Shown here: positions 7,027 to 53,544 of the stretch, one piece after another | Numbering within the stretch: the stretch's first letter is position 1 | Layout: each line of letters starts with the position of its first letter | Source: Deltaproteobacteria bacterium | GTDB taxonomy: Bacteria > Desulfobacterota > Binatia > HRBIN30 > CADEER01 | DNA: 64,000 nucleotides | Assembly (NCBI GenBank): GCA_033764095.1 | Contig: JANRJF010000254.1 | Span: forward strand, 12,338 to 76,337 | Reading direction: 5' to 3' | Notes under the pieces: model-generated | Databases searched by the model: none | What the model saw: the letters and a program-made list of their open reading frames with translations, nothing else | What the model was told of the DNA's origin: nothing | Position numbers and translations under genes: made by a program

Positions 7027-7034
7027 CGGTCACG
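7001..7034. repeat. Heptamer tandem repeat (CCGGTCA)x3, right arm of the inverted-repeat pair
   Basis: ccggtcaccggtcaccggtcac at 7012-7033. Its reverse complement matches 6708-6727 perfectly over 20 nt. Confidence 0.85.
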
Positions 7035-7180
7035 CATTCTCCAAGCGCGTGGAATGCCGTCACCTTGACCCCCCTGGGGGGCGCGGGCTATGTCGCCCGA
7101 GGACGTGCGGATGAGCAATCGGCAGACAGCTTCGCCGCGTGGCGACGAGTTCGGTGATGGCAGTGGCTGGCGCTGGCGGG

Positions 7181-8929: not shown

Positions 8930-8938
8930 GGAGGGGCG

Positions 8939-16185: not shown

Positions 16186-16277
16186 GGCGCGGTGGCGCCG
16201 CGGGCAGGGGTCGTATATCCCTGCCGTGGGCCCGGCGGCGGGGCGCCGCGGCGGTTCACTCTTCCGGCACGAGAACG

Positions 16278-17600: not shown

Positions 17601-20020
17601 TCCGCCGCCTGCGGCGCGCCGCGAATCGGCGTGCGGCACGGCGGCGTCGGCGGGCGAGCCGACTGGCCGGCGTCGCGTTGATCGGGCTGCTCGGCGTGGT
17701 GTGGCCGGCGCGCGCGCAGCCGCCCTCCCCGACTCCGACGCCGCGGCAGGCGAGCGAGCAGGAGATCACCATCGACGCCGAGTCGCTCACCTACGACACC
17801 AAGGGGGAGAGCCTCTCGGCCACTGGCGACGTCCTGATCCGGCGTGGCGACACGACGTTGCGCGCCGACACCGTGCAGTTCAACCGCCGCACCAGCGAGG
17901 CGCGGGCGTTGGGCGACACGGTGTTGACCAGCCCGCAGGTCGAGATCCACGCCGACTCGATGTTTCTCGACCTCGAGAACGAGACCGGCGACCTGGACGA
18001 AGCGACGATCGTCTCCGACCGACTCGGCTATTCGCTGAGCGGCCGGCGCGTTCAGAAGGGGCTCGGTCAGCGCTATCGGATCGAGCGCGGGCGCTTCACC
18101 ACCTGTCTCTGCGACGACGGCGGCAAGCCGGACTGGAGCATCGCGGGCGACACGCTCGACGTCGAGGTGGACGGCTACGGCTCGTTGGAGGGGGGCACGT
18201 TCAACGTCCTCGACGTGCCGGTGATCTGGCTGCCGAAGGCCGCCTTCCCGGTCTTCCGCGAGCGCCAGTCTGGCCTGCTCTTCCCGCGCATCGGTATCTC
18301 CAACCGGCGCGGGTTCCAGCTGCTGCAGCCGTACTACTGGGCGATCGACAAGACGCAGGATGCGACGATCAGCTTCGACCTCGAAACCTCGCTGCGTGTC
18401 GGCCTGATCGGGGAGTACCGCTACGCCTTCAGCCCGCAGACCGACGGCGCGTTCCAGGTCGGCTACTTCGCCGACGTCTTCCGCGGCGCGACGGACAACG
18501 TGCGGGTCCCCAAGGGCGCCGACCCCAACACGCCGGAGAATCGCTGGGGCATCCTCGGCCACCACGCGCAGGGCGTGCCGCCGGTGGACGGGATGAGCGG
18601 CTACGTCGACCTGCTGCTGGTCGGCGATGACCTGTTCCTGCGCGAGATGAACACCTTCGGCATCGACGAGCAGCAGGACGTGGCGCTGCGCACCATCCCG
18701 TTCACCACTTCGCAGGCCGGCATCCTGCAGGAGTGGGAACGCATCGCCCTGCAGACCGAGGTCATCTACTACCAGGACCTGGTCGGCCCGATCGTCGAGG
18801 AGCCGACGCCGCTCGGGACGCCGCCGGTCGGCCCGGGCACGCCGACGCCGACGCCGGTGCTGGGTCAGGACGAATCGCTGGTCATCCAGCGGCTGCCGGA
18901 GATGCGCGTGCAGGGGCAGAAGCAACTCGGCTGGGGGCTGATCGGCGACCTGAGCGGCAGCATGACCAACTTCCAGCGTTCGCTCGGCCTGGCCGGTTTC
19001 CGCGGCGACATCAAACCGTCGGCCGAGCTGCGCCTGCCGCTCGGCAGCGCCTTCTTCGGCGCGGTGCGCGGCGCCTTCCGCGAGACCTTCTACGGGTTGA
19101 CCGAGAACCAGATGAGCGGCGGGTTCACCGGCGCCGACCCGAGCCTCCCCCTGATCGACCTGCCGAGCGGCAGCAGCCGCGAGCTCTTCGAGCTGCATGC
19201 GAACGTCGGCACCGAACTGGCCCGCATCTACGACTTCCCGTATTTCGGCCTCGACAAGCTGCGCCACACCATCGAGCCGCAGGTCGAGTACCTCTACGTC
19301 CCGCCGGTCGATCAGGGCGATCTGCCGGTGTTCGACGGCATCGATCGCATCAACAAGCGCAGCCTGATCACCTACGGCTTTGCCACCCGCCTCCTGGCGC
19401 GATCCGACGTCAACGCGGAGGGGAAGGGAGCCGGCGAGGTGTACGAGATCACCCGCCTGTCGCTGGCGCAGAGCTACGACGTGCTGCGTGACATTCCGCC
19501 GACCACCAACATCAACGACGTCACCGGTCAGCCGATCAACCCGGCGACCGGCGACCACTTCTCCGACATCGACGTCACATGGCGCATCAACCCCGGTCCG
19601 GTGACGCAGGTGCGCGCCTACGCGACCTACGACACCAGTGAGAACCTGCTGTCGTCGGCCACCGTCGGGGTGCGGCTGAAGGAGCCGATCCGCGCCCTCG
19701 ACCCGAGTGCCAAGCCGCGCCTGTTCACGCGCGCCAGCTTCACCGTCGAGTACCGCTACATCACCGACAACATCCTGCAGTTCCTCGACTCGACCGTGGC
19801 GCTGCCGGTCACCGATCGGATCGCCGGCCTGTATGCCATCCGCTACGACATCCTCAATGACCGCTTCCTGGAGAATTACGTCGGCATGCGGTTGCTGTCG
19901 TCGTGCGACTGCTGGGCGCTGAACCTCGGATTCACGCAGACCAGCAACCCGAACGAGTTGCAGTTGCAGGCGCAGTTCACGCTCGCCGGCTTGGGCGCGG
20001 CGCCGGTCGCCGGCTTCTGA
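17597..20020 (+). CDS. lptD: LPS-assembly outer-membrane protein LptD
   Basis: Basic N-terminus plus signal sequence, OstA-like N-terminal domain (ADSMFLDLENETGDL, RFTTC) and a long beta-barrel-like C-terminus. GTG start overlaps the folC stop. Confidence 0.85.
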   Translation: MIRRLRRAANRRAARRRRRASRLAGVALIGLLGVVWPARAQPPSPTPTPRQASEQEITIDAESLTYDTKGESLSATGDVLIRRGDTTLRADTVQFNRRTSEARALGDTVLTSPQVEIHADSMFLDLENETGDLDEATIVSDRLGYSLSGRRVQKGLGQRYRIERGRFTTCLCDDGGKPDWSIAGDTLDVEVDGYGSLEGGTFNVLDVPVIWLPKAAFPVFRERQSGLLFPRIGISNRRGFQLLQPYYWAIDKTQDATISFDLETSLRVGLIGEYRYAFSPQTDGAFQVGYFADVFRGATDNVRVPKGADPNTPENRWGILGHHAQGVPPVDGMSGYVDLLLVGDDLFLREMNTFGIDEQQDVALRTIPFTTSQAGILQEWERIALQTEVIYYQDLVGPIVEEPTPLGTPPVGPGTPTPTPVLGQDESLVIQRLPEMRVQGQKQLGWGLIGDLSGSMTNFQRSLGLAGFRGDIKPSAELRLPLGSAFFGAVRGAFRETFYGLTENQMSGGFTGADPSLPLIDLPSGSSRELFELHANVGTELARIYDFPYFGLDKLRHTIEPQVEYLYVPPVDQGDLPVFDGIDRINKRSLITYGFATRLLARSDVNAEGKGAGEVYEITRLSLAQSYDVLRDIPPTTNINDVTGQPINPATGDHFSDIDVTWRINPGPVTQVRAYATYDTSENLLSSATVGVRLKEPIRALDPSAKPRLFTRASFTVEYRYITDNILQFLDSTVALPVTDRIAGLYAIRYDILNDRFLENYVGMRLLSSCDCWALNLGFTQTSNPNELQLQAQFTLAGLGAAPVAGF

Positions 20021-22803: not shown

Positions 22804-22822
22804 TGTCAAGCGGAAAAGGGTG
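22804..22822 (-). promoter_or_regulatory. Conserved upstream motif with -35-like TTGACA, shared with the P3-P6 locus
   Basis: The minus strand reads cacccttttccgcttgaca. The 16-mer cccttttccgcttgac is identical to 45465-45480 upstream of P3. It lies about 155 nt upstream of the P2 start. Confidence 0.45.
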
Positions 22823-23014: not shown

Positions 23015-24397
23015 ATGAGGGTGCGTATTGGGTTGGTGTGTGGTCTGGGATTGGCGGTGGCCGGGCTGAGCGGCTGCGGCATGTTCGCGAAGAAGCCGGC
23101 GGCGCCGGAGAACGCGGCGCAGAAGGGGCTGGCGGCGGCCGCGGCGGCCAGCAAGCCGGCGCCGATGGGCTACACGCTGGCGAACAACGGTTTGCCGCAG
23201 GGCATCATCTGGAAGAGCCAGATGGCGCTCGGCGACGTGAACGCCGACGGCTTTCCCGACATCGGCGTGATCTCCCGACTGGCCGACGGGCCGTGGATCT
23301 TCGTCGGCGACGGCAAGGGCAACTGGACCCCGTTCGCCAACGGCCTGCCGCGCGAGCCGTTCTGCGGCGGCGGCATGGACTTCATGGACGTCAACAAGGA
23401 CGGGATCATGGACGCGGCGATCTCCGACCACTGCAAGGGGGTCTTCGTCTTCCTCGGCGACGGCAAGGGCAACTGGCGCACCGCATCGTCCGGCCTGCCG
23501 ACGATCGGCTCCGAGGACGTCGCGCTGGGCGACTTCAACAATGACGGCTGCCCCGACCTGGCGTCGGTGGCGGCGGCGGAAGAGGGCGTGCGCGCCTTCA
23601 CCGGCAACTGCAAGGGCGTCTGGAAGGAGAGCTCGAAGGGTCTGGCGCTGACCGATTGGGGCAACGCGGTCGAGCTCAAGGACGTCAATGCCGACGGGAA
23701 TCTCGACGTCATCGCCGCCTACGCGGCCGGCCCGCGCGTCTGGCTGGGCGATGGCAAGGGCGGCTGGACCGAGGCGTCGCAGGGGCTGCCGGCACCGCAG
23801 ATCCACGGACTGTACTGGGGCCTCGATGTCGGTGACCTGAACGGCGACGGCAAGCTCGACATCGTCTCCGGCTCGCAGATGCCGCCTTTGCCCGAGGGCT
23901 GCGGCGCGCCCGGCGCGCCGACCTGCGCCGGCGGCGGCGTCGAGGCATTCCTGCAGCAGCCGGACGGCTCGTGGCAGTTCGCCAACGCCGGCTTCCTGCC
24001 GATGAACTCGCTCGGCGTCGCCATCGGCGACCTGAACAACGACGGCAAGCCGGACGTCACCGCGGTCGGCAAGCGCGCGCTCGACGAGATCGGCGGCGTC
24101 TACGGCGTCTATACCTATCTGGGCGACGGCAAGGGCAACTGGCAGCCGGTGATCCCCGAGGGCCTGCCGCAGACCGGCAAGGAACGGAGCTGGGGCGTCG
24201 GTATCGCCGACATCAACCGCGACGGCATGAACGATATCGCGGTCGCCTTCGGCGATGTCGTGTCCCCCACCTGGCGTTCGGGCGCCAAGGGCAAGGACAA
24301 GGAAGCCAAGGAAGCCGAGGCGAAGGCGCCAGCCGCGCCGACGCGCGGCAAGTTCGGCGAGATCGGCGTCTGGTTCGGCAAGCCGACGCCGCGCTGA
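23015..24397 (+). CDS. FG-GAP/VCBS-repeat lipoprotein (predicted 7-blade beta-propeller)
   Basis: Lipobox LSGC at the N-terminus. Seven DxNxDGxxD Ca-loop repeats (DVNADGFPD, DVNKDGIMD, DFNNDGCPD, DVNADGNLD, DLNGDGKLD, DLNNDGKPD, DINRDGMND), each followed by a GDGKGNW-type strand. Lys/Ala/Glu-rich tail. Confidence 0.85.
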   Translation: MRVRIGLVCGLGLAVAGLSGCGMFAKKPAAPENAAQKGLAAAAAASKPAPMGYTLANNGLPQGIIWKSQMALGDVNADGFPDIGVISRLADGPWIFVGDGKGNWTPFANGLPREPFCGGGMDFMDVNKDGIMDAAISDHCKGVFVFLGDGKGNWRTASSGLPTIGSEDVALGDFNNDGCPDLASVAAAEEGVRAFTGNCKGVWKESSKGLALTDWGNAVELKDVNADGNLDVIAAYAAGPRVWLGDGKGGWTEASQGLPAPQIHGLYWGLDVGDLNGDGKLDIVSGSQMPPLPEGCGAPGAPTCAGGGVEAFLQQPDGSWQFANAGFLPMNSLGVAIGDLNNDGKPDVTAVGKRALDEIGGVYGVYTYLGDGKGNWQPVIPEGLPQTGKERSWGVGIADINRDGMNDIAVAFGDVVSPTWRSGAKGKDKEAKEAEAKAPAAPTRGKFGEIGVWFGKPTPR

Positions 24398-37709: not shown

Positions 37710-39992
37710 GTGTCGGAAGCATCCCCCGCGCCGGGCGGCGCACCCAGACCGCGCGTCGGCGCGGTCGCGCTGCTGGCGCTGGCCCTGGCCTGTGGCGCGG
37801 TCGGCCAGTGGCACTTCGAGAGTGCGCAACCGTGGCGCGTGCAGCAGTGGGAGCGCTTCGTCGCGCAGCGCACGGCGGGGGTGATCTGGTATGGCGCGAT
37901 GGCGATCGCCGCCGCGCTGTTCGTCTGGCGGGCGCGCGACTGGCCGCCGCCGGTGGCCGGCCGCCGTCTGCGCTGGGCGGCGGGGACCGCGCTGCTGCTG
38001 CTCGTCGTCGCCGCCGGCTGGCTGCGTTTCCATCGCCTGCACGAGCTGCCCCCGGGGCTCTGGGTGGACGAGGCGCTGAACGGCGTCCAGGCGGTACAGA
38101 TCGCCGCCAGCGGTCGGCCGCTGGCGGCGTTGCCGCCCGAGGACCTGCGCACCGGGTTGGGGGCCGGCTTCGTCGACCTCGCCGGCCTCGCCTTCGCGCT
38201 GTTCGACTTCGATGACGGTCCCTGGGGCGTTCGCGCCGTCGCGGCGGTGATCGGCATCGCCGCGGTCGCCGCCGCCAGCGCGCTCGCCTGGGTGTGGTTC
38301 GGGCCGCTGGCCGCGCTCGCTGCCGGCGGATGGCTGACGATCTCGCAGTGGCACCTCAACTACTCGCGTTGGGGCGAGATGCCGCTGATGTCATCGCTGG
38401 TCGAGACGCTGATCGCGCTCGGCGTCACCGTCGCCCTGCGGGCGCGCGGCCGGCGCGCCTGGGCGGCATGGCTGTTCGCCGGCGTCATGACCGGTCTCGG
38501 CGTCTACACCTACCAGACCTTCCGACTCTTCATCGTCCTCGCCGGCGGCGCCGCCGGGTTGTGTGCATGGCGCCGGCGCGCCGTGTTGGTGCCGCATCGG
38601 CGGCCGCTGTTGGCGGCCCTGCTGCTGGCGGCGGTGGTGACACTGCCGATGCTGCGCTACGCGCTCAGCGCGCCGGAGCAGTTCGGCGAGCGCGCCATGG
38701 GCACGCTGATCCTCGGGCGCGAGGACTGGCGCGCGCAGCTCGCCGATTCACTGCCGCGCTCATTGCTCGCCTTCCAACTGGTCGGCGACGACAATCCGCG
38801 CCACAACCTGCCTTTCGCACCGTTGCTGACGCCGATCCCGGCGGTGCTGGCGGGGCTCGGCTTGGCGCTCTGCCTGGCGCGCGCGCGGCATCCGCCGTGC
38901 GGCGCGACCGCGCTCTGGTTCGCCATCGCGCTGGTGCCTGCCGTCATCACGCTGGAGGCGCCGCATGCCTCGCGCCTGCTCGACGCGATCGTGCCGCTGG
39001 CCCTGATGATCGGCGTCGCCGTGCAGGCGCTGATCGCCGCGCTGCAGGTCCTGTTGCCGGCCCGCCTGGCGGCGCCCGCCGCGTTCGCCGCGGCCGGCCT
39101 GGCCGCGGCGCTGACCGCGCGCGCCGAATGGCACCAGTATTTTGTCGCGCGCGAAGCCCTGCCGGCGTTCACCGACGCGTTCTTTCCCTACGAGTCGGCG
39201 CCGGGCCGCTATCTCGCGCGCCATGCGCCGGACGCGACCGTGTACCTCGACCCGGTCACCTACTGGCAGCCGGCGACCTTCTTCGTCGCACATCGCTATC
39301 TCGAGACGCGGCCCAACGACGTGCGTGAGCTGTTCCTGGCGCACGACTTCCCGCCGCGCGCGCCGCTGACCCGCGACGCGCTCTATCTGCTGCCGCGGCC
39401 CTACGCGACGTTCGCCGCGGTGCTCGAGTCGCTGTCGCCCGACACCGCCTGCGAGACCGTCCGCGATCGCTTCGCGCGCGTCGACATGATCGCCTGTCGC
39501 GTGCCGCGCGACGCGATGAACGACGCCATCGCGCGCGGGTGGCGTCCGCCCTACGGCCTGCGCGGGCGCTTCTACCGCGGCGGCGAGAACGGCGCGCTGC
39601 TCGCCGAGACGCCGTTGCCCTATGCGCTGGCCGAGTATTCGCTCGATCGACCGCCGGTCGGTCACTTCGATCTCGCCGTGTGGGAGGGCACCATCGACCT
39701 GCCGGTCGACGGCGAGTACTTCTTCCGCCTCAACCCCGACACGACGACGCTGGAGATCGACGGCCAGCGCATCCTGTCGCACCACGGCGACGCCGCGTTC
39801 GGCGGCGCCAACGAGGGCCGCGCCCGGCTGCGCGCCGGGCGCCGGCCGATCCGCATCACGCTGGCGCCGGGAACCGGCGGTCCGAACTTTCTCTGGTTCT
39901 ACTGGCAGCCGCCCGGCGGCGAGGGCGATTGGGTGCCTGCCACCGTGTTGCGGCCGGCGGCGGACCGGTCGGCAGCCTCGCCTCCGTCTTGA
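37710..39992 (+). CDS. GT-C (GT39/PMT_2, ArnT-like) glycosyltransferase fused to a C-terminal PA14 domain
   Basis: More than 10 TM segments with a first-loop acidic motif (LWVDEALNG). The C-terminal 140 or so aa match the PA14 pattern (GLRGRFYRGG...AVWEGTIDLPVDGEYFFRL...LEIDGQRIL). Confidence 0.7.
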   Translation: MSEASPAPGGAPRPRVGAVALLALALACGAVGQWHFESAQPWRVQQWERFVAQRTAGVIWYGAMAIAAALFVWRARDWPPPVAGRRLRWAAGTALLLLVVAAGWLRFHRLHELPPGLWVDEALNGVQAVQIAASGRPLAALPPEDLRTGLGAGFVDLAGLAFALFDFDDGPWGVRAVAAVIGIAAVAAASALAWVWFGPLAALAAGGWLTISQWHLNYSRWGEMPLMSSLVETLIALGVTVALRARGRRAWAAWLFAGVMTGLGVYTYQTFRLFIVLAGGAAGLCAWRRRAVLVPHRRPLLAALLLAAVVTLPMLRYALSAPEQFGERAMGTLILGREDWRAQLADSLPRSLLAFQLVGDDNPRHNLPFAPLLTPIPAVLAGLGLALCLARARHPPCGATALWFAIALVPAVITLEAPHASRLLDAIVPLALMIGVAVQALIAALQVLLPARLAAPAAFAAAGLAAALTARAEWHQYFVAREALPAFTDAFFPYESAPGRYLARHAPDATVYLDPVTYWQPATFFVAHRYLETRPNDVRELFLAHDFPPRAPLTRDALYLLPRPYATFAAVLESLSPDTACETVRDRFARVDMIACRVPRDAMNDAIARGWRPPYGLRGRFYRGGENGALLAETPLPYALAEYSLDRPPVGHFDLAVWEGTIDLPVDGEYFFRLNPDTTTLEIDGQRILSHHGDAAFGGANEGRARLRAGRRPIRITLAPGTGGPNFLWFYWQPPGGEGDWVPATVLRPAADRSAASPPS

Positions 39993-42595: not shown

Positions 42596-45169
42596 ATGGG
42601 GCGTGGTGACGCGACGGGCGCTGACCCGAGCAGGGGCACGGGCGACGCGGTGAGCGCCAGTCGATCTCGGCCTGTGTTGCTGCGCCGGCTGGCGCTGGCG
42701 GTCCTGGTGGCCGGTTTGTCGAGCTTCGCCTCCGGCCTCGCGTCCGCTCAGGAGGTGCGCGGCGACGCCAACTGTGACGGAGTGGTGAGCCAGGCCGACC
42801 TGCCGGCGCTCAGCTCCGCCCTGTTCCTCGGTAGCGTCTGTGCGACCGCCGACGTCAACCAGGACGGGCGACTGTCGGCCGCCGACCTGGTGGCGCTGAT
42901 CCAAGTGCTGGCCGCGTCGCCCACGCCCAGCCCGAGCGCGACCGCCAGTGCCACGCCGAGCGGGGTGGCAACAGCGACCGCGACGCAGAGTCCCACGTCG
43001 CCTTTGCCGAGTGCCACCGCCAGCGCGACCGCGAGTGCCACCGGGGTCGCCACCGCGACCGCGACATCGCTGGCGACCGCGACGGCGACCGCGACGCGCA
43101 CTGCCGAGGCGACGGCGACCTCGATGGCAGCAACGGCGACGGCGACCTCGGTGGCCGCAACGGCGACGGCGACCTCGGTGGCAACCACAACCGCCAGCGA
43201 CACGCCGACGCCGCTAGCCACCGACACCGGCACGCTCGTCGCCAGCCCGACGCCGACCGCAACCGCCAGCGTGCCGACCGAAACGCCGCTCGAGGCGACC
43301 GCCACCCCGGAGCGCAGTCCCACCGCCACATCCGATCCCAGTCCGACCGAGACCGGGACGCTGCACCCGACCGCTACCGCGACCTCGACGGCGAGTGCAA
43401 CCGGATCGGCGACGCCGACCGAAGTGGTGGCGCCGACGAGCACGGCGACCGGCTCGCCGAGCGCGACCGCGCCGCCGCCGTCGATGACACACACCGCCTC
43501 ACCGACCAACTCGGCGCTTCCGAGCGCCAGTCCGACCGAGACCGTCAGTCCGACGCGAACGCAGAGTGCGACCCGCACCGCGAGCGCGACGCGGACGCCG
43601 ACCGAAACGCGCACGCCCACCGTCACCCGCACCGGCACACTGCCGGCGACCGACACTCCCACCGCGACCGGCTCCCCGACGCGTACGGAGACGCGCACGG
43701 CGACGGTGACGCGTAGCGCGACGCCGGCGTCCACGCTGACGCCGACCAGGACCGCGACCGAAACGCGCACGCCGACCGAGCCGGCATCCCCGACCCGCAC
43801 GCACACGGTTCCGGCGAACGCTACCGAGACGCGCACCTCGACGCCGACCCGCACCGAGACCGTCACCCGAACCGAAACCGAGACGCGCACGCCGGTGCCG
43901 CCGACGGCGACGCGCACGCCGAGCTTCACCGGCACCGTCACCCGTACGGCCACCTCGGCCCCGTCGGCGAGCCCGACGCGCACTGAGACGGCCTTGCCGG
44001 CCAGCGTCACGGCGACCCCGACACTGACCCCATCGCGAACGGCGACTGCCAGCTTCACTGGTACGCAGACCCGCACCGAGACGCCGACGCGCACCCCGAC
44101 CGCGACGCGCACCGATACGCCGCTGCCGCCGCCTACCGCCACCGGCACGCCGCTGCCGTCAGAAACCGCGACCCGCACCGGGACGGCGACGCGCACCGAT
44201 TCGCCCAGCCGCACGCCGACTCGCACCGCGACGTTGACGCCCACCGGCACAGAGACGCGAACGCTGACGCCAACGCGCACCATCACGCCGACGCCGAGCG
44301 CGACCAACACGTTGACGCCGATCTTCTCCTTGACGCCGACGCTGACCCGCACGCTGACGCCGACCGGCACGCCGACGCGCACGCAGACCAACTCCCCGAC
44401 GCCGACCTTCAGCTTCACGTTCGTGCCGACGCGCACGTCGACGATCACACGGACGCCGACCATCACCCGCACCGCGACGCGAACCTCGACGATCACGCCC
44501 ACGCCGACCGTCACCCGGACGCCGACACCGACTTCGGCCCTGGCCGGTCCGCGGGTCAGCTTCGCCGGCGCGATCTCACAGGATGGTTGTCAGTCGTGCT
44601 GCCAGTTTATTTGTCAGCTGACGCCAACCCCGACACCCATCATCGAGAATGGCCGCGAGGTCTTCGTCCGCGACGTCGGCCAGTTCCTCTTCGTCGTCGA
44701 AGGCCAGCGCGGACCCTCCAACCAGAACCCCGGTCTCAACGTGAACCCCGACGGAACCGATCGCGGCGACCTGCAGATCCTGGTCAGCCGCTCGACCGGC
44801 GCCATCGACGATCCGGCCGGATTCGGCAGCGCCGCCGTCTGCGACATGGGCCCGCCGCCGCTGCCATTCGGCGGCGTGCCGGGCGTCAACCCGCCGGTGT
44901 TCCTCCCCGGCGACGCGATCACCCATGCCATTCAAGACATGGAGTGTCGTTTCACCGCGATTCCACTCAGCGCGATCAGCGGTGCCTGCACGCGCAAGTC
45001 GAACGGCGACTTTGGATTCATCAGCAACCAGACGCGTACACAATACTGCTACCAGGTGCCGATGACCGGCGCCTTCCAGGTCGGCGACACGCTGGTGTCG
45101 GTGCAGTTGCGCGACGTCGGCGGCAACATCGGGCCGACCAAGGAATTCATCATCCGCGTCCTGCCCTGA
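42596..45169 (+). CDS. TR-A: secreted giant protein with dockerin-like Ca-loops, about 540 aa of Thr-rich period-2 low complexity, and a conserved unnamed C-terminal domain
   Basis: One uninterrupted frame. It contains a signal peptide (LALAVLVAGLSSFASGLASAQE), GDANCDGVVSQADL...ADVNQDGRLSAADLVALI, long T-x-T-x tracts, and a C-terminal domain shared with TR-B. An alternative GTG start lies at 42651. Confidence 0.8.
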   Translation: MGRGDATGADPSRGTGDAVSASRSRPVLLRRLALAVLVAGLSSFASGLASAQEVRGDANCDGVVSQADLPALSSALFLGSVCATADVNQDGRLSAADLVALIQVLAASPTPSPSATASATPSGVATATATQSPTSPLPSATASATASATGVATATATSLATATATATRTAEATATSMAATATATSVAATATATSVATTTASDTPTPLATDTGTLVASPTPTATASVPTETPLEATATPERSPTATSDPSPTETGTLHPTATATSTASATGSATPTEVVAPTSTATGSPSATAPPPSMTHTASPTNSALPSASPTETVSPTRTQSATRTASATRTPTETRTPTVTRTGTLPATDTPTATGSPTRTETRTATVTRSATPASTLTPTRTATETRTPTEPASPTRTHTVPANATETRTSTPTRTETVTRTETETRTPVPPTATRTPSFTGTVTRTATSAPSASPTRTETALPASVTATPTLTPSRTATASFTGTQTRTETPTRTPTATRTDTPLPPPTATGTPLPSETATRTGTATRTDSPSRTPTRTATLTPTGTETRTLTPTRTITPTPSATNTLTPIFSLTPTLTRTLTPTGTPTRTQTNSPTPTFSFTFVPTRTSTITRTPTITRTATRTSTITPTPTVTRTPTPTSALAGPRVSFAGAISQDGCQSCCQFICQLTPTPTPIIENGREVFVRDVGQFLFVVEGQRGPSNQNPGLNVNPDGTDRGDLQILVSRSTGAIDDPAGFGSAAVCDMGPPPLPFGGVPGVNPPVFLPGDAITHAIQDMECRFTAIPLSAISGACTRKSNGDFGFISNQTRTQYCYQVPMTGAFQVGDTLVSVQLRDVGGNIGPTKEFIIRVLP

Positions 45170-45464
45170 TGGGCATCGCCGGCGCCGTCCGCAGCGACTC
45201 ACGCTGCGGTCGCCGGCGTGACCGAAACGCTGAATCTTGCCAGTTCGGCACCTGGCTGCCGGATCGGCCCCCTCCGCTCAGTCGGCAAAATCATATTTGC
45301 CGCCCCGCCATTTTGTGGCATACACCGTGCCTGCCAAAACGGCGGCGCGTGCAGCGGATGATGCTTTTTGGGAACAGACAACCGGTCGGGAGCGCGGACG
45401 GCGCCCTCTACCGCCAGCGAAGCGGCCGATGGATGCCAGAATCCACCGCTGCCGGACATCTCAC

Positions 45465-45504
45465 CCCTTTTCCGCTTGACTGCGTGGCAGCAAATTGCGA
45501 TAAG
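45465..45504 (+). promoter_or_regulatory. Conserved upstream motif plus sigma70-like promoter candidate for the P3-P6 operon
   Basis: cccttttccgcttgac (45465-45480) is identical to the minus strand of 22805-22820. TTGACT (45476-45481), a 17-nt spacer, then GATAAG (45499-45504), about 75 nt upstream of the P3 ATG. Confidence 0.4.
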
Positions 45505-45578
45505 CCGTCACGCGTTGAAGGGGCGAGGTTCGGACCCCGGTAACGCATATGGGTGCAGTTACCGAAAGGAGGCGTGCA

Positions 45579-47063
45579 ATGCGAGTGCAGAAGCGAAGCC
45601 CGTGGCTGACTGGCCTGGGAGTGGTGCTGACGGCCATGGCGCTGTGGGGAGCGCAGGCTCGAGCGGAAGTCTCCTCCGACAAGCCTGGGTCGGTGGTGAT
45701 GTGGCCAAAGGTGATTGCGGATGGAACCCGCGACACCCTCATCACGCTGACCAACACGCTCAACTTTACTGCGTACGCGCATTGCGAGTACGTCCAGGCG
45801 CTCGGCCTGTGTTCGATCACGGGAGATTTCTGTGATCCACAGGCCACTGTCGATGGTTCGCCGGGCATCTGTCCGGCAGTCGCCGGCAACGTCTGTGTCG
45901 ATCAGTGGCAGACGGCGAACTTCGACGTCGTCCTGACCCGCCAGCAGCCGACGATCTGGCGCGTGTCGACCGGCCGTATTTACGATCCGTTCCTGCTGAC
46001 CGACGGCGTCTGCCAGGACATCCCGGGCGTTCCGCTGCGGCAGTCCTGCCCCGGTCTCTTCCTGATCGGCCAGGTCCCGCCGGCGCCGGATCAGCCGTTC
46101 CGCGGCGAGCTGCGCTGCTTCCAGGTCGCTTCCGACGGCACGCCGCTGCCTGCCAACGGCCTGAAGGGCGAGGCGGTGATCGAGACGCTGCCGACTACCG
46201 ATCTGCCGGTGAACACGCAGATCAGCAAGTACAACTCGATCAACGTCGAAGGTCTCGATGCTCCGTCGATCGACGGCATCCTGCGCCTGAACGACATCGA
46301 GTACAGCGCCTGTCCGGAGGCGGTCGAGGTTACGCACTACGCGCAGGGCGCCAACGTCCTGGACACCCCGGCCGGCTTCACGGGGTGCAGCGGAACCGGT
46401 TGCCCGGTCAACACGGAGATCACCCTGATCCCGTGCCGCGCCGACTTCACCAACGAGGTCGGTGCCCGCTTCGCGACGGACATTCGCTACACCAACGAGT
46501 TCGAGCAGACCCTGTCGGTCGAGCCGACGTTCGATTGCTGGGCGAACTTCGACCTGCGCGACCTGCCTTTCGCACCCGCCTCGCTGAGCGGCACCACGTT
46601 CCAGCGCACCCGCCTGATTCCGACTGGCTCGGGTAACTGCATCTCCGGCGATACCTCGCTCAATGGTGAGGAGAACGGCCCCTGCGCCGACGACGCCGAC
46701 TGCGGCACCGGCGGCGTCTGCGGTCCGGTGACCGGCATCCTCGCGGTGGTTGAAGAGTTCTACAGCTCTGACGCCTCCCTGGCCGTCCCGCCGACCGCCC
46801 CGACTGGAACCGCGGCATCGAACGGCTACTCGGTTGATTTCAACCGCGACAACAACCTGGGGCGCCCCGGCCACTGCCGCGGCGATCTGACGGAGGAGTG
46901 CACCACGGACGCCGATTGCGGGACCGGCCTGTGCCGAATCAACACGACGGTCTCCTGCATGAGCGACGCGACGTGCGCTGCGCTCGATCCGACTGACTTC
47001 TGCGATCGCTGCATGAACGACGAGATCGCGACCGAGTCCGGTCCGATCGTCATCGTCCAGTGA
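45579..47063 (+). CDS. Secreted Cys-rich protein, uncharacterised paralog family, P3 (divergent, with C-terminal Cys-module extension)
   Basis: GAAAGGAGG RBS and a signal peptide ending AQARA/EV. Family motifs MWPKVI, DTLITLTNT, AHCEYV, WQTANFDVVLTRQQP, PFRGELRCFQ, NGLKGEAVI, SKYNSI, LIPCRADF, NEFEQTLS. The C-terminus has extra C..DADCGTG.C modules. Confidence 0.8.
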   Translation: MRVQKRSPWLTGLGVVLTAMALWGAQARAEVSSDKPGSVVMWPKVIADGTRDTLITLTNTLNFTAYAHCEYVQALGLCSITGDFCDPQATVDGSPGICPAVAGNVCVDQWQTANFDVVLTRQQPTIWRVSTGRIYDPFLLTDGVCQDIPGVPLRQSCPGLFLIGQVPPAPDQPFRGELRCFQVASDGTPLPANGLKGEAVIETLPTTDLPVNTQISKYNSINVEGLDAPSIDGILRLNDIEYSACPEAVEVTHYAQGANVLDTPAGFTGCSGTGCPVNTEITLIPCRADFTNEVGARFATDIRYTNEFEQTLSVEPTFDCWANFDLRDLPFAPASLSGTTFQRTRLIPTGSGNCISGDTSLNGEENGPCADDADCGTGGVCGPVTGILAVVEEFYSSDASLAVPPTAPTGTAASNGYSVDFNRDNNLGRPGHCRGDLTEECTTDADCGTGLCRINTTVSCMSDATCAALDPTDFCDRCMNDEIATESGPIVIVQ

Positions 47064-47098
47064 TGCGCCGGCGTCGAGACGAGAGAAGGAGAAGGGCG

Positions 47099-48247
47099 AT
47101 GCTGAGCATGAAGAAGGTTCTCCTGGGAGTGGCGGCGCTCACCGGCCTGGTCCTGTCGGCGCCGGCGCAGGCGGAGACGTTCTCCGATACGGGCGCGGCG
47201 GTGCTGGTCTGGCCGACCATCATCGTGTCCGAGGATTACGACACGATCGTCACGATGACCAACCAGGCCGCGGTGCCAAGCGCGGCTCACTGCTTCTACG
47301 TCAATGCCAACAACCGCTGCTCGAACACCGGCGAAGTCTGTGAGGACTCGTCGGAATGTGAGGACGGCGGATTCTTCGGCGCCTGCCTGCCGGGCTGGAT
47401 CGAGATCAACTTCGACGTCCTGCTCACCCGCGATCAGCCGCTCGGCTGGAGCGCCGCCGACGGCCTGAGTGGTTCGGGACTGCCGTGCCCGGGCGGCATC
47501 GGCAGCATCTGCAGCGGCAACGGTGGCACGCGCGTTCCGCCGGTCGGCGAAGTTCCCTTCGTCGGCGAGCTCAAGTGCATCCAGTCGGATCCGATCACCC
47601 GCCTGCCGTTCCCGTGCAACGATGCAAATCCGCTGAACCGCTGCCGCAACGACCTCGAGGGTGGCGCGACGATCACGGGTTTCAATCCCAACAACGGCGA
47701 GATCGATCCGGAGCGCTACAACGCGGTCGGCCTCCGCTCCGCTGGCCAGAACAACGGTGACAGCCTGCTGGTCATCGGTGGACCGCCGGCACAGGCCGAG
47801 TACCAGCCCTGCTCCGAGGTCCTGGTGTTCAATCACATGTTCGACGGGGCGGTCGATCCGGTGAATCCGGACAATGAATTCGCCTCCACGCTCAGCCTGG
47901 TTCCCTGCACGGAGAACTTCCTGACCCAGTCGGTTCCCCGCGTGACGGCACAGTTCCTGGTCTACAATGAATTCGAGCAGCGCTTCTCGACCAGCCGCCT
48001 GGTCAACTGCCTGCTGACCAGCGACATCTCCAACATCGACACGACGCAGTCCGACCGCTCGATCTTCAGTGCGGCAGTCGCCGGCACAGTGGCCGGCCAG
48101 ACGCGCATCACCGGAGTTGGTGGCGGCCTGATCGGCAATGCGGTTCTGTTTACGTTCAACGATTCACTGCTGGCCGCCTCGGGTGCTGGCTACAACCTGA
48201 ATCAGTTTGCGGACCGCGTCGATCCGGACTTCATCAGCATTCCGTGA
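47099..48247 (+). CDS. Secreted Cys-containing protein, uncharacterised paralog family, P4 (type A)
   Basis: GAGAAGGAGAAGG RBS and a signal peptide ending PAQA/ET. Motifs DTIVTMTN, AHCFYVN, GWIEINFDVLLTRDQP, PFVGELKCIQ, LVPCTENF, LVYNEFEQRFSTS. Confidence 0.8.
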   Translation: MLSMKKVLLGVAALTGLVLSAPAQAETFSDTGAAVLVWPTIIVSEDYDTIVTMTNQAAVPSAAHCFYVNANNRCSNTGEVCEDSSECEDGGFFGACLPGWIEINFDVLLTRDQPLGWSAADGLSGSGLPCPGGIGSICSGNGGTRVPPVGEVPFVGELKCIQSDPITRLPFPCNDANPLNRCRNDLEGGATITGFNPNNGEIDPERYNAVGLRSAGQNNGDSLLVIGGPPAQAEYQPCSEVLVFNHMFDGAVDPVNPDNEFASTLSLVPCTENFLTQSVPRVTAQFLVYNEFEQRFSTSRLVNCLLTSDISNIDTTQSDRSIFSAAVAGTVAGQTRITGVGGGLIGNAVLFTFNDSLLAASGAGYNLNQFADRVDPDFISIP

Positions 48248-48291
48248 CGGGTCGCATCTGTAGCGCGTGGCTTCCTGAAGGAGGAGAACCC

Positions 48292-49386
48292 ATGAGTACG
48301 GTTAAGGGACTGCGAGCCGGCGTGATGGCGAGCATCCTCGCGGGGGTGGCGCTGGCGGCCGGAATCGCCCAGGCGCAGAACTTCTCGACCGAGCAGCCCG
48401 GTTCGATTCTGATCTTTCCGAAGGTGGTGAACACCTCGGACACGATCATCCAGATCACCAATACCGACAACAGCGTCGCATACGCGCACTGCTTCTACGT
48501 CAACGGCGCGTCGGTGAACGGACAGCCGCTGTGGCAGGTGACGGACTTCGAGCTCACCCTGACGCGGCAGCAGCCTACGCACTGGGCGGCGAGCACCGGC
48601 CGTGCCGTCAATCCGCAGGACGGCGTCCCGGGTATCGACCCGGGTCTGGTTCCGCCGGTCGCGCCGGGATTCACCGGCTACCTCACCTGTGTCGAAACCC
48701 TGGCTGACGGCACTCCGACCAGCGGCAACCATCTCATCGGTGTTGCCACGGTGGGTGAGATCAACGGCCTCGGCGGTGGTGCGAACATCGTGAGCAAGTA
48801 CAACGCGATCGCCATCCCGGGTTGCAACGGTGATGATGGTCCGTGCGGCGACACCGGAGAGTCGAACGACGGCAACAACATCCTCGAGCTAAACAACGTC
48901 GAGTATGCCCGTTGCCCCGGCGGCGTGTACCTGAACTTCCAGTCGGAGGGCGGTCCGGATCCGGCCCTGGCGGGAGCCGGGAATGTCGCCTCGACGGTCA
49001 GCACGGATCTCACCTTGGTGCCCTGCGGGATCGACTTCGAGAACCTCATCCCCGAGTCGACGACGCTGAGCGCCGAGATCCGGGACGAGTTCGAGAACCG
49101 CACCTCGATCACGGCGATCGACATCGATTGCTTCTTCGACGAGCCCCTGAGCTCACCGCTCTTCTCGGGCCAGTTCGTGCTGCCAACGGCTTTCGGATCG
49201 GCGATTCTTCGTCCGCAGGCAGGGACGGGGAACGTCCCGGCGGTTGGCGTGGCCAACGTGCTTCGTACGGCGGATGACGGTACGCAGGACACGGCGGCGA
49301 CGAACCTGCACTTCTGCACGGACCAGGATCCGCCGGCGCTGTGTGTGCCGGTCGACTCCGAGATCCGGCTGCCGACCTTCCAGTGA
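48292..49386 (+). CDS. Secreted Cys-containing protein, uncharacterised paralog family, P5 (type B)
   Basis: GAAGGAGGAG RBS and a signal peptide ending IAQA/QN. Close paralog of P2 (ILIFPKVV, DTIIQITNT, AHCFYVNGA, PLWQVTDFELTLTRQQPTHW, LTLVPCGIDF). Confidence 0.8.
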   Translation: MSTVKGLRAGVMASILAGVALAAGIAQAQNFSTEQPGSILIFPKVVNTSDTIIQITNTDNSVAYAHCFYVNGASVNGQPLWQVTDFELTLTRQQPTHWAASTGRAVNPQDGVPGIDPGLVPPVAPGFTGYLTCVETLADGTPTSGNHLIGVATVGEINGLGGGANIVSKYNAIAIPGCNGDDGPCGDTGESNDGNNILELNNVEYARCPGGVYLNFQSEGGPDPALAGAGNVASTVSTDLTLVPCGIDFENLIPESTTLSAEIRDEFENRTSITAIDIDCFFDEPLSSPLFSGQFVLPTAFGSAILRPQAGTGNVPAVGVANVLRTADDGTQDTAATNLHFCTDQDPPALCVPVDSEIRLPTFQ

Positions 49387-49440
49387 GTTGGGACGGTGGG
49401 TGACGAGATGAAGCGCGCAGGCAGGGAAAGGAGTCACGAG

Positions 49441-50712
49441 ATGCGTACGGTCAATGCCAAGGGGAGCGCCACGCGGTTGTCCGCGGCGGTTCTGGCGGCA
49501 TCGCTGATCCTCGTCGGCTGGTCGGCTGGCGCGTCGGCGCAGGTGTCCCGGTCGGATCGGGCTGCCGGCTACGTCGTGCTGCCGAAAGTCATCGTTCACA
49601 CGACGGGCGGTGATCCGGCAGTGCCGGTGGGCGGCGTCGCCACCGACACGCTGATTCAGATGACGAACACGAACCAGGCGTCGGCGATCACGGTCGACTG
49701 CTGGTGGGTGAACGCCAACCGCCACTGCGGATCGGACGCTGGTCCTATCTGCCAGACCAATGCCGACTGCGCTCCTGGGCTCCAGTGCGTGCAGGGGTGG
49801 GCGGTGCTCGACTTCCAGGTGACGCTGTCGCCAGGGCAGCCGATCGGCTTCCTGGCTTCGACGGAGCTCAATCCGCTCCCGTGCGATCCGACCTTCCCGG
49901 GACCGGGATGCCTCGGCAACGCGGGCGGCGCGGTCCGTCCGGTGCCGGAGGATCCGTTCCAGGGTGAGCTGAAGTGCGTCCAGGTGGACGAGAATGACAT
50001 TCCGGTGGCGGAGAACGACCTCAAGATCGAGGCGACCGTCATCTCGACGACCGCCGGGGCGCCGGGGACTGCAACGACAGCAGCGTCCTACAACGGCGTG
50101 GGTTTCGAGGCCCTGGAAGAGGGCACGGGCGGGGTCGACGACCCGCTGTGCCTGGGTGGGCTGCCGATGGGAACGCCCCAGGGCGTGGAGTGCGCCGCCG
50201 AGTATGCACCGTGCCCGAACGTGCTCCACGTGGAGCACTTCTTCGACGGCGCCGTGACGGAGTTGGGCAGCACGGTGACCACCGACCTGACGCTGGTGCC
50301 GTGCAGTGAGAACCTGGGAGAGCCGGCTGAGCAACTCGACCTCCGCGTCACGGCGCAGATGCTGGTGTACAACGAGTTCGAGCAGCGGTTCTCGACCAAC
50401 AGTGTCGTGAATTGCTACCAGGCGACGCAGCTGTCGGACATCGACACGCAGCCGGGACCGGCAGGTAACCCGTACTCGATCTTCTCGGTTGGTGTTGAAG
50501 GAACGATCACGGGTCAGACGCGCATTCGCGGTGTCAGCGGTCCGCAGGGTCCGCTGGGTTACGGTCTGATCGGCGTGGCCTGCGAGGATCACAGCGTGGG
50601 CGGTGGCTCGGTGGTTGCCACCACGGCGTTCAACCTGCAGTCGGTTGGCTTCCGCGAGGGCGGCGACGCAGTGTACCGGACGCAGTTCCCGCAGCAGCCT
50701 GTGGTTCCGTGA
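49441..50712 (+). CDS. Secreted Cys-containing protein, uncharacterised paralog family, P6 (type A)
   Basis: GGGAAAGGAG RBS and a signal peptide ending ASAQ/V. Close paralog of P1 (DTLIQMTNT, PFQGELKCVQ, CPNVLHVEHFFDGA, LTLVPCSENL, LVYNEFEQRFSTN, SIFSVGVEGTITGQTRIRGV). Confidence 0.8.
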   Translation: MRTVNAKGSATRLSAAVLAASLILVGWSAGASAQVSRSDRAAGYVVLPKVIVHTTGGDPAVPVGGVATDTLIQMTNTNQASAITVDCWWVNANRHCGSDAGPICQTNADCAPGLQCVQGWAVLDFQVTLSPGQPIGFLASTELNPLPCDPTFPGPGCLGNAGGAVRPVPEDPFQGELKCVQVDENDIPVAENDLKIEATVISTTAGAPGTATTAASYNGVGFEALEEGTGGVDDPLCLGGLPMGTPQGVECAAEYAPCPNVLHVEHFFDGAVTELGSTVTTDLTLVPCSENLGEPAEQLDLRVTAQMLVYNEFEQRFSTNSVVNCYQATQLSDIDTQPGPAGNPYSIFSVGVEGTITGQTRIRGVSGPQGPLGYGLIGVACEDHSVGGGSVVATTAFNLQSVGFREGGDAVYRTQFPQQPVVP

Positions 50713-50740: not shown

Positions 50741-50775
50741 AGGCCGGAGTGGGAACCCACTCCGGCCTTTTTTTT
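50741..50775 (+). terminator. Intrinsic terminator of the P3-P6 operon
   Basis: aggccggagtggg / cccactccggcct, a 13-bp stem with a 2-nt loop, followed by a run of about 8 T. Begins 29 nt after the P6 stop. Confidence 0.85.
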
Positions 50776-50829: not shown

Positions 50830-51216
50830 ATGGCAGCGAAGCGAATCCTGGTCGTCGAGGACAACTTGGACAATCGTCGTATCCTCGTCTACCGCCTCAA
50901 GCGGATCGGCGAGTTCGAGATCGTCGAAGCGAGCAACGGCGAGGAGGCGCTCACCATCGTGCAGACCCCACCGCCGCCCGATCTGATCTTCATGGACCTG
51001 AAAATGCCGGTCATGGATGGATGGGAGGCGACCAAGAAGATCCGTCAGCTCGAGTTCGGGAAGGGCATTCCGATCATCGCGTTGACCGCGCAGGCGATGG
51101 CGGGGGACGAGCAGAAGGCACTGGCTGCCGGCTGCGACGACTACCTGGCGAAACCGATCGTCGATCTCAGTGTCGTGCGTACGAAGATGGAGCGTCTGCT
51201 GAGCCGAGTGCACTGA
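50830..51216 (+). CDS. Single-domain response regulator (CheY-like receiver)
   Basis: ILVVEDN, phospho-acceptor context LIFMDLKMPVMDG, ALTA, and DDYLAKP. No output domain. Confidence 0.88.
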   Translation: MAAKRILVVEDNLDNRRILVYRLKRIGEFEIVEASNGEEALTIVQTPPPPDLIFMDLKMPVMDGWEATKKIRQLEFGKGIPIIALTAQAMAGDEQKALAAGCDDYLAKPIVDLSVVRTKMERLLSRVH

Positions 51217-51312
51217 GGCGAGCCGCAGGGCGCGACTGGGCGGGGGCAGGAGCGGCGAGCGGGAGTTGGCTCGCGTGACAAGTTGTCCGGCGCTGACGGG
51301 CCGGATGACGCG

Positions 51313-53544
51313 ATGAGGAGATCTCGGCAGGCAGCGTCGGGTCGTTGGGCGTGGGTTGCGATCCCGCTGCTGGCGATCTGTGTGGGTGGCGGCCCGCTGC
51401 AAGCGGCCAGCGCGCTGTGCGAGGCGGGCGATGCGCGGACGCGGGTCGGGCTGGTGGTCGATGCCCTGTTCAGCGGCGGAGCCTGCGACGCGAACGGCGA
51501 CGGCGGGACCTCGGCGGCCGACCTGACCGCGGCGTGGAGTGAGCCGGCAGCGACGCCGACGGCCACGCCGAGCGCCACAGGGCCGGCGACACTCACCGCG
51601 ACGGCGACTGCCAGCGGGACGAGCCTGCCGGCGACGCCCGAGGCCACTGCCACGCCGACCGCTCCGTCGCCAAGTCCGACCGCGGTCGCGCAGGTGACCG
51701 CCAGCCGGACGGTGACCGCGACGCCCGTGCCGAGCGCGACGGCGAGCGCAACGCCTACCCTGGACGCCAGCCCCGGAGCGTCCGCTTCGGCGACGCCGAC
51801 GGCAACCGAGACCCCGACCGCCGCGGCAACCGAAACGGCGACCCTGGTGGATGCGGAGACTGAGACGCCGACCGCGCTGCCGACCGGAACGGCCAGCAGC
51901 ACGCTGACTCCAACCGTCGGCGCGCCGAGCGCGAGCCCCACGGCCGTGCCTACTGCAACCGTTGAAGCGACGCCGGTCGACTCCGCGACGGCAACCCCAA
52001 CGCGGACGGCGACCCATACCGCAACGGCCATCCCGACGCTGACAGCGACCCCGACTCGATCGCCAAGCTCAACCGCCAGCGCTTCTCCGACGCGAACCGC
52101 GACACGAACAGTGAGCGCGTCCCCCAGTGCGAGTGCGACGCGGACCGGCAGCGCGACGCGCACGCGCACGCCGACAACTGGTCCCACCGCCACGGCGTCT
52201 CAGAGCCCGACGCGGACCGCCACGGCGGTTGCCACGCTCACACCGACCCGCACGATCACCGGCACGCGGCCGGCAACGCCCACCCGCACCGCCACTGCCG
52301 CCGCGTCCCCGACCCGCAGCAGCACTCCCACCCGCACTCACAGCCCGACTCTCGCGGCGAGCGCCACGCGCACCTCGACGGTGACCCGGACCAGCAGCCC
52401 GACACGGACCGTCACCCAGGCCGCCAGCCACACACCGACGCGCAGCCCTTCTCCTACACGCACTGCGACCGCACCGATCGGTCTGCCGGGCACCGCAACG
52501 CAGACCCCGACCCGTAGCGCGTCGGTGACGCGGACGGCGACCTGGACGCGCACGCCAAGCGCCGCGCACTCCGCCTCGCCGACGACCACGGCCACGCGTA
52601 CGGGGACCGCCACCCGCACGCTGACCTACACCGCTGGCCCGTCGCCGACCCGTACCGGCACGGCGACCGGTACGGCAACCCTCGCCCCGAGCTCGACGCG
52701 TACGCCCACGCCAACGCCGACCGCTTCGGTGACCGCTACACACGTCCCCACCGGAACGCCGACGCACCCGCCGACCGCGTCGCCCACCGTCACGCCGACG
52801 CCAACCGCGTCAGCCAGCCGCACGCGCACGGGCACGCGAACGCCGACGCCGACGCGCACCGGCAGCGCGACCCAGACCGCCACCGCCACCGGCACGGCGA
52901 CCATCACGCGGACGCCAACGCGCACCGCCACCGGCACCCCGGCGCCCACCAACACTCCGCGGACAATCGGCGGCGAGATCACCGCCTTTGGCGTGGCGCG
53001 CGCCGACGGCCAACCGGTGATGACCATCGGTCCGCAGGACGACGGCTACCTGACGTTCGTCCGCCCGCCGAGCGGCTTCATCATCTACATCGAAGCAAAG
53101 CGCGGTCTCAGCGGACTGGCCGTGGGCTCGGAGACGTTTGCCTCGGACCCCAAGGATCCGAACGTGCTGCCCGATCTGCAGGTGCTCGTGTCACGGCCGC
53201 TCGGCAACGGCAGCACTGCGGTGTGCGACATCTCGCCGCCTGTCGGCGGCGTTCCGGCCGTCGTCCCACCGACGTTCGGCGGCTCGCAGGCGGTCAGCAA
53301 CGCGATCAACGATTTCTCGTGCCGCTTCGACGCGCGTGGCAGCTCGATGCAGGCCTGCACGCGCGACGGCTTTTCCGCCTACACGTTCACCGAGCCGAGC
53401 TCGACCATCCAGTTCTGCACCAGCCCCGGTATCGGCACCGAGCTCGCCTTCCCGCTCGGGGACACCATCGTCACCGCGCGTGTGCGCGACGTTGCCGGCC
53501 AGCCCGGCCACGCAAAGAGCATCGCGATCCGCGTGCTCGAGTGA
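51313..53544 (+). CDS. TR-B: secreted giant protein with one dockerin-like Ca-loop, about 470 aa of Thr-rich period-2 low complexity, and the same conserved C-terminal domain as TR-A
   Basis: Signal peptide ([23 protein letters not shown]), [14 protein letters not shown], and long T-x-T-x tracts. The C-terminal domain aligns with TR-A ([45 protein letters not shown]). Confidence 0.8.

Follow-up and report, generated by a model that had tools for sequence, protein, structure and literature searches.

The window analysed here is a 64,000-nucleotide stretch of contig JANRJF010000254.1 from a Deltaproteobacteria bacterium. It contains four tandem genes, P3 to P6, which encode secreted proteins of an unnamed family. 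They are four open reading frames (ORFs) on the forward strand, as seen in the ORF listing of the window and in the DNA of the junctions. P3 (45579..47063) encodes 494 residues, with an extra Cys-rich extension at the C-terminus. P4 (47099..48247) encodes 382 residues and carries a four-Cys insert. P5 (48292..49386) is a minimal core of 364 residues without the Cys-rich insert, and P6 (49441..50712) encodes 423 residues. The ATG start codons are located at 45579, 47099, 48292 and 49441, each 6-9 nucleotides after a GGAG-type Shine-Dalgarno sequence (GAAAGGAGG, AAGGAGAAGG, GAAGGAGGAG and GGAAAGGAG, respectively). The genes are separated by 35, 44 and 54 nucleotides; P5 and P6 share one reading frame, with a stop codon between them. 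Upstream of P3, a promoter (45468..45504, +) contains a -35-like TTGACT (45476-45481), a 17-nucleotide spacer and a -10-like GATAAG (45499-45504). Downstream of P6, an intrinsic terminator (50741..50775, +) is formed by a GC-rich hairpin followed by T8, with a folding energy of -30 kcal/mol (z = -5.2 compared to shuffled sequences). The P3-P6 transcription unit extends from the TTTTCCGCTTGAC promoter to this terminator. An earlier note on this DNA had described the four same-strand ORFs with gaps of 35-54 nucleotides, a GGAG-type ribosome-binding site for each and the strong hairpin-plus-T terminator; the junctions and the folding energy bear out this description.

A second array is located on the reverse strand, with P2 (21440..22645, -) as its first gene and P1 (20147..21382, -) as its second. 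In a six-way alignment the other five proteins are 28-36% identical to P3, with collinear motifs and 31 invariant columns. Five Cys residues are invariant in P1 to P6 (C69, C180, C245, C286 and C320 in P3 numbering). Among 183 family members from 66 sources, four of them are conserved in 100% and the fifth in 96%. The N-termini of all six proteins are signal-peptide-like and, as read from the alignment, end in A-x-A-type sites (ARA/E, AQA/E, AQA/Q, ASA/Q, ASA/R and TRA/E, the slash marking the site). The signal peptides, the collinear motifs and the five invariant Cys had all been claimed before, and the alignment agrees on each.

The family was also said to match no named family, and this was borne out. 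Searches of Pfam-A 2025 and NCBIfam 20.0 with P1 to P6 returned noise only, the best match (E = 0.003) falling on a signal peptide. A Pfam scan of 71 members at E values up to 10 produced only weak EGF-like matches to the Cys-rich insert. The family profile matched no PDB sequence. PHROGs and PADLOC profiles did not match the family either, which places it among neither phage-structural nor anti-phage-defence families. TIGR04201, a Myxococcales-type Cys-rich repeat, scored 17 bits on the C-terminus of P3, under its cutoff of 25. No catalytic or cofactor motif emerged, as had been anticipated. Homologs are nonetheless abundant. One search found at least 296, all of which are annotated 'hypothetical' and lack a precomputed Pfam domain, and an exhaustive hidden Markov model (HMM) search yielded 2,420 clusters (50% identity, E ≤ 1e-3), 746 of them with E ≤ 1e-30. 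The shared motifs are not compositional artefacts. A taxonomic scan with one genome per species returned 64 loci, nearly all from Candidatus Binatia metagenome-assembled genomes (MAGs) or from MAGs whose labels are vague or probably wrong, with several contigs per genome among them. Counted from these loci, each Binatia genome carries at least 10-13 copies, a lower bound that agrees with the lineage expansion proposed earlier. The family is essentially restricted to the uncultured phylum Binatota. It is new at the family level and shows no defining feature of any known family.

The arrangement of the family genes is highly ordered. We searched the family HMM on six-frame ORFs of the window and 65 related loci, 1.135 Mb in total, and found 201 family genes, virtually all in tandem same-strand arrays. 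Average-linkage clustering of 183 full-length members produced two clades, both ancient. Clade A has 85 members, including P3, P5 and P2, and clade B has 98, including P4, P6 and P1. The four-Cys insert is found in 95-98% of B members compared to 31-41% of A members. Across the 66 loci the most frequent array patterns are AB (25) and ABAB (20), and the others are mostly due to truncation at contig ends or to broken frames. Transitions within arrays are AB in 78 cases, BA in 29, BB in four and AA in one, and 55 of the 60 classified arrays open with an A gene. The order P3-P4-P5-P6 is retained where the proteins have diverged down to about 35% identity. This near-strict alternation indicates that the 'four tandem paralogs' of the earlier note are two A-then-B pairs, P3/P4 and P5/P6, with P2/P1 as a third. 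The paralogy itself stands; the pairing, the tie to the flanking genes and the shared promoter had been missed. In three loci (L007, L056 and L061) family genes are split over two or three frames by frameshifts, and may be pseudogenes or assembly errors.

Gene fusions connect the two clades to each other and to dockerins. Three proteins from three genomes (P0123, P0267 and P0268; 48-49% identity) contain A, B, a dockerin, a Pro/Thr linker and a further C-terminal domain (CTD) in a single chain with one signal peptide. In L057 and L058, B is fused to a dockerin, a linker and the CTD, and in L053 to a linker and a dockerin. P0245 (1766 residues) has dockerin-like EF-hands, CARDB and FG-GAP repeats followed by an A-type domain, and P0240 and P0241 are beta-propeller proteins with the family domain at the C-terminal end. 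In P1 to P6 themselves, neither the Pfam scan nor the alignment revealed a dockerin. The fusions to dockerin, linker and CTD indicate that the family domain is a module of an extracytoplasmic dockerin-linked protein network. Other C-terminal additions were found in B-type proteins. Those in L047 (9854-11656) and L062 (11082-12707) are fused to a further domain of about 190 residues without a Pfam match. At the C-terminus of P0121 (residues 466-497) and P0134 (residues 442-470), a Pro/Thr linker leads into a Gly-Cys motif, which precedes a hydrophobic helix and an Arg-rich tail. This ending resembles an exosortase/rhombosortase-type sorting tag, but it was found in only two of 589 sequences and has no NCBIfam match, and the assignment was rejected.

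The same domains are encoded on both sides of the quartet. The upstream partner (42596..45169, +) has a signal peptide, a dockerin (about 42761-42910), a linker and the CTD (44564-45166). Its ORF opens at 42386, and the ATG at 42596 is the likely start. The dockerin matches Pfam Dockerin_1 (type I) with E = 6.7e-6, above the curated cutoff, and contains two Ca-loop motifs. The linker is about 550 residues of Pro, Thr, Ser and Ala with genome-like codon usage. The downstream partner (51313..53544, +; ORF 51283-53544) has a signal peptide, a Pro/Thr linker and the CTD (52969-53541), with one dockerin-type Ca loop at about 51487-51525. In the two flanking proteins together, the Pro/Thr/Ser/Ala linkers span 450-550 residues and the CTD, common to both, about 190-200. 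A CTD HMM located a same-strand ORF adjoining every quartet locus with enough flanking sequence. Dockerin-type Ca loops (DxNxDGxxxxxDL) are present in 39 of 47 CTD ORFs, most of the remaining eight being cut by a contig end, and these 39 contain 60-78% Pro, Thr, Ser and Ala ahead of the CTD. The quartet and its two flanking genes are the unfused version of one recurrent architecture.

The CTD belongs to an unnamed family with 157 matches, all hypothetical. Its predicted structure is highly confident, with a predicted local distance difference test score (pLDDT) of 94.7 and a predicted template modelling score (pTM) of 0.91. A fold search against the PDB returned nothing at E ≤ 1e-3; matches to p53-like domains, SrpA and PorU had template modelling (TM) scores below 0.4. 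Homology between the CTD and the A/B family was rejected (hhalign probability 0.1%). The CTD, too, is new as a family. Two of its relatives, P0376 and P0378, are lipoproteins with short linkers. The public gene calls for the dockerin/linker/CTD genes are systematically wrong. Only the last 170-250 residues, corresponding to the CTD, are called, with antisense 'hypothetical' ORFs annotated across the Pro/Thr linkers (in the window, and in L065 at 6763-9108 and 15917-17939). Two observations support the long sense ORF: the dockerin and the CTD lie in frame in about 47 loci, and the codon use is typical of the genome.

The quartet and the P2-P1 array share a promoter element. The 13-mer TTTTCCGCTTGAC (45468-45480, +) is an invariant block in the alignment of quartet upstream regions, and a second exact copy (22805-22817, -) is located about 160 nucleotides upstream of the P2 start. 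The 1.135 Mb contain 25 exact copies, compared to a chance expectation of about 0.03. All 25 immediately precede the opening A gene of a quartet or of a pair of the LptD-adjoining type to which P2-P1 belongs. The distance from the HMM start is fixed, at about -103 in quartets and about -170 in LptD-type pairs. An exact-match scan of the related loci found the 13-mer absent from the other two array types. Since both arrays in the window are preceded by exact copies, they are very probably co-regulated. Between the promoter and P3 there is a conserved 5' leader (45505..45578, +). It ends in GAAAGGAGGCGTGCAATG, a strong Shine-Dalgarno sequence with the start codon, which is 100% conserved in 16 loci though their proteins have diverged to 35-75% identity. 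No covariation supporting an RNA structure was found in the leader alignment, and searches for Rfam and tRNA features found none. The region about 250 nucleotides upstream of P3 contains a palindrome, GGCAAAATCATATTTGCC (45284-45301, +), and after it a sigma-54-like -24/-12 element, TGGCATACACCGTGC (45316-45330, +); the closer quartet loci (L001-L005 and L009) keep both. The sigma-54-like pattern alone occurs twice in the window compared to 1.3 expected, and is not rarer than chance.

The AlphaFold2 model of P5, computed from a 71-sequence alignment, is confident (pLDDT 87.3, pTM 0.87). It contains about 19 strands and almost no helix, in agreement with the beta-rich fold expected earlier. A Foldseek search of the PDB and BFVD, a check proposed at the same time, found no global match to the model (TM < 0.25; best BFVD TM < 0.2). 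Generic two-sandwich proteins, including arrestin/VPS26, GH2 sugar-binding domains, transglutaminase, lectin and two-domain fimbrial adhesins, matched with TM < 0.25 and were treated as non-informative. The sole confident structural neighbour is TM1070 (PDB 1nc7), matched with probability 1.0, a TM score on the target of 0.70-0.73, a root mean square deviation of about 5 Å and 7-8% identity. The match is domain-sized, the target having 116 residues, and covers about a third of P5. The first eight strands of P5 span residues of about 39-175, and the invariant Asn (N57) ends strand 2. An internal duplication of the family protein was also considered and rejected, as hhalign compared the N- and C-terminal halves with a probability of 0.2%.

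The quartet is one of four conserved locus types. A stand-alone receiver-domain response regulator (50830..51216, +; Pfam Response_reg, E = 3e-25) lies between the terminator and the downstream partner, and members of its cluster (c1) are found downstream of the quartet in 20 loci. Genes surrounding the quartet encode DprA, a metallophosphatase, 5-FTHF cyclo-ligase, TrmI, TtuA and LysRS. The P2-P1 type lies between LptD and a group formed by an FG-GAP protein and two ABC exporters. The remaining two types adjoin RarA, UDP-sugar dehydrogenase, TopA, TrmFO and IlvE, and acyl-CoA carboxylase is also found next to non-quartet arrays. The neighbours of the non-quartet arrays are housekeeping synteny and not operon partners. 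Housekeeping genes of this kind, those around the quartet included, reveal little about function; the long flanking ORFs of the quartet are the informative neighbours. The FG-GAP repeat gene (23015-24397, +) is divergent from P2 and adjoins it in eight loci. Together with the fusion of FG-GAP repeats to an A-type domain in P0245, it may represent a second Rosetta-stone link. A membrane glycosyltransferase of the PMT_2 type, resembling dolichyl-phosphate-mannose protein mannosyltransferases, is encoded at 37710-39992 (+) with a Pfam score of 26.0 against a cutoff of 26.1. In several loci a member of its cluster (c22) is conserved ahead of the quartet block, and the enzyme could glycosylate the Pro/Thr linkers. 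Upstream of the third array type, 11 loci contain a protein of about 980 residues (cluster c13; L063 4392-7340 and relatives) with PD40 propeller repeats, Pro/Thr linkers, Cys-rich repeats and dockerin-like loops. It also has a Cohesin match with E = 1.3e-4, under the Pfam cutoff. The c13 protein suggests that Binatia have a cohesin-dockerin network. In the literature we found no paper linking Binatia or Binatota with dockerin or cohesin.

Our analysis leads us to propose, tentatively, that A and B form an extracytoplasmic heterodimer that serves as the binding head in a dockerin-based surface network. The parts of this proposal differ in strength. The alternating order of the clades, its fixed polarity and the fusion of A to B in single chains suggest that A and B probably form a heterodimer. 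The dockerin-fused relatives point to a location of the complex on or outside the outer membrane. A binding head is most likely, rather than an enzyme, in light of the lectin-, ASRT- and adhesin-like structural neighbours, the terminal position of the domain in adhesin-like multidomain proteins and the lack of similarity to enzymes. Twelve polar residues, each conserved at about 90% or more in clade A and in clade B, indicate some shared site and do not specify its kind.

In the proposed mechanism, the operon would be transcribed from the dedicated conserved promoter that it has in common with P2/P1, and transcription would stop at the strong terminator. A and B would be Sec-exported, disulfide-stabilised beta-sandwich proteins that assemble outside the cytoplasm into a heterodimer, and the quartet may produce (AB)2 or two distinct AB units. 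The heterodimer would be the functional 'head' of the network. In the quartet, it would work with the flanking proteins, whose N-terminal dockerin would tether them to cohesin-bearing anchors, and which would supply a long, probably glycosylated Pro/Thr stalk and the novel CTD. The role of the head would most likely be to bind a glycan, a surface polymer or another ligand, not to catalyse a reaction.

Several observations weigh against this proposal. Pairs of the other three locus types have housekeeping neighbours and no adjoining CTD gene, so the stalk partnership does not extend to all arrays. Common descent within one phylum could account for much of the quartet synteny. The similarity to ASRT is structural only and confined to a single part of the protein, with 8% identity, and no sequence profile connects the two. 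Dockerin-tethered cargo in known systems is usually enzymatic. A disulfide between A and B through the fifth Cys is not supported either. Although both domains of the A-B single chains have lost this residue, seven B proteins lack it and their A partners keep it.

The A/B pair could instead be an enzyme module, such as a polysaccharide- or peptide-active beta-sandwich or jelly-roll, displayed by dockerins in the manner of cellulosomal catalytic subunits, with A and B as a catalytic pair. The dockerin fusions place the domain where enzymes usually sit, and it co-occurs with beta-propeller modules (Vgb_lyase/SGL-like) in long proteins. In addition, D50, T51, N57, Q94, Y205, E266, E268 and S272 are acidic and polar residues strongly conserved in both clades. 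However, a pair of catalytic and non-catalytic proteins usually has one degenerate partner, and here the same residues are kept in both clades. The family has no sequence or structural similarity to any enzyme family in Pfam, NCBIfam, the PDB or the Foldseek searches, and the four conserved neighbourhoods contain no sugar-metabolism or transport genes. We consider an enzyme unlikely.

Alternatively, A and B could be alternating subunits of an abundant surface polymer, a two-component canopy or fibre similar to a surface layer (S-layer), with the dockerin proteins as stalks. The alternation is strict and the partner proteins are stalk-like in architecture. The conserved dedicated promoter, the invariant and perfect Shine-Dalgarno sequence and the strength of the terminator point to a highly expressed operon. 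On the other hand, each genome has 10-13 paralogs in at least four array types. The single C-terminal domain in large multidomain proteins and the A-B single chain fit a discrete module better than a lattice. Neither pilus or usher machinery nor homology to S-layers was detected in Pfam, in NCBIfam or among the neighbouring genes. A polymer is quite unlikely on this evidence.

The earlier note had read the genes as a lineage-expanded family. They could then be independent secreted paralogs, co-located only through tandem duplication and without a physical partnership among themselves or with the flanking genes. Tandem duplication is the simplest origin of such arrays, and three of the four locus types have housekeeping neighbours only. 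However, random duplication would produce neither the AB 78/AA 1/BB 4 transitions nor the A-first polarity across deep divergence, and it leaves the repeated A-B and B-dockerin-CTD fusions unexplained. We find this reading decidedly doubtful. That A and B are periplasmic, chaperone-like maturation or export factors for the Pro/Thr-rich dockerin proteins is very improbable: they adjoin dockerin/linker/CTD genes in roughly matching numbers and a PMT_2-type glycosyltransferase is conserved nearby, but most A/B pairs have no CTD gene nearby, and fusion of a chaperone to its client, or to the C-termini of unrelated large extracellular proteins, would be unusual.

Binatota occur widely in soils, sediments and sponges, and to our knowledge the phylum has no cultured member. 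Uncharacterised families are common in uncultured phyla. Binatota genomes devote at least 10 genes each to the A/B family, all of them annotated 'hypothetical', and the miscalled genes of the stalk partners hide the system from annotation-based surveys. The rule of A/B pairing, the Rosetta-stone fusions and the exact promoter make this family unusually tractable. The pairing and the promoter, combined with the dockerin/CTD fusions, lead to a concrete hypothesis, open to testing, about a major component of the Binatota surface. The models of the A/B family and of the CTD also provide two confident new folds for structural study.

Several known systems share features with the A/B family. The structural neighbour TM1070 of T. 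maritima belongs to the ASRT/ASRAH superfamily, named for the Anabaena sensory rhodopsin transducer (DUF1362), whose eight-stranded sandwich may, on the Foldseek match, resemble part of the P5 model. This superfamily is predicted to bind sugars, and ASRAH domains occur as dyads and tetrads (De Souza et al., PMC2739507). N57 ends strand 2 in the A/B family, as does the conserved Asn of ASRAH. In contrast, the Trp in strand 1 of ASRAH is absent from the family, which has an FPKV motif there, and none of the 71 members has a Pfam ASRT match even at E = 10. The family also contains a larger second beta domain and a Cys-rich insert and has four to five conserved Cys, whereas ASRT proteins are mostly small cytoplasmic tetramers.

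Cohesin-dockerin systems of the cellulosome type are similar in other respects. The upstream flanking protein has a type I dockerin and relatives of the family are dockerin-fused. Long Pro/Thr linkers are typical of cohesin-dockerin systems. Unlike cellulosomal components, P3 to P6 contain neither dockerin nor cohesin, and glycoside hydrolases and carbohydrate-binding modules are absent. Cohesin (PF00963) matched no family member, and no cohesin structure was among the top Foldseek matches. The host is of a Gram-negative-type Binatota lineage in which LptD is present, and of the domains carried as cargo neither the A/B domain nor the CTD matches a known fold globally. At a low probability, we envisage an as yet undescribed, non-cellulosomal surface apparatus of Binatota in which A/B and (AB)2 would be ligand-capturing or canopy-like heads on long glycosylated Pro/Thr stalks, joined by dockerin-cohesin contacts, expressed as a promoter regulon, possibly controlled by the response regulator and built around the two new folds as its core.

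Chaperone-usher and pilin families, including spore coat U/Csu, had no Pfam or NCBIfam match to the A/B family and no chaperone or usher genes among its neighbours, and CupB6 and CfaE were weak Foldseek matches only (TM about 0.1). Staphylococcal leukocidins, with an S gene followed by an F gene, and BinA/BinB are pairs of diverged secreted all-beta paralogs that are encoded in a fixed tandem order and form hetero-oligomers. No pore-forming fold of the leukocidin or aerolysin type was found among the Foldseek matches of P5, and there is no evidence of toxicity. The likeness of the A/B pairs to the leukocidins and BinA/BinB is an analogy in gene organisation only.

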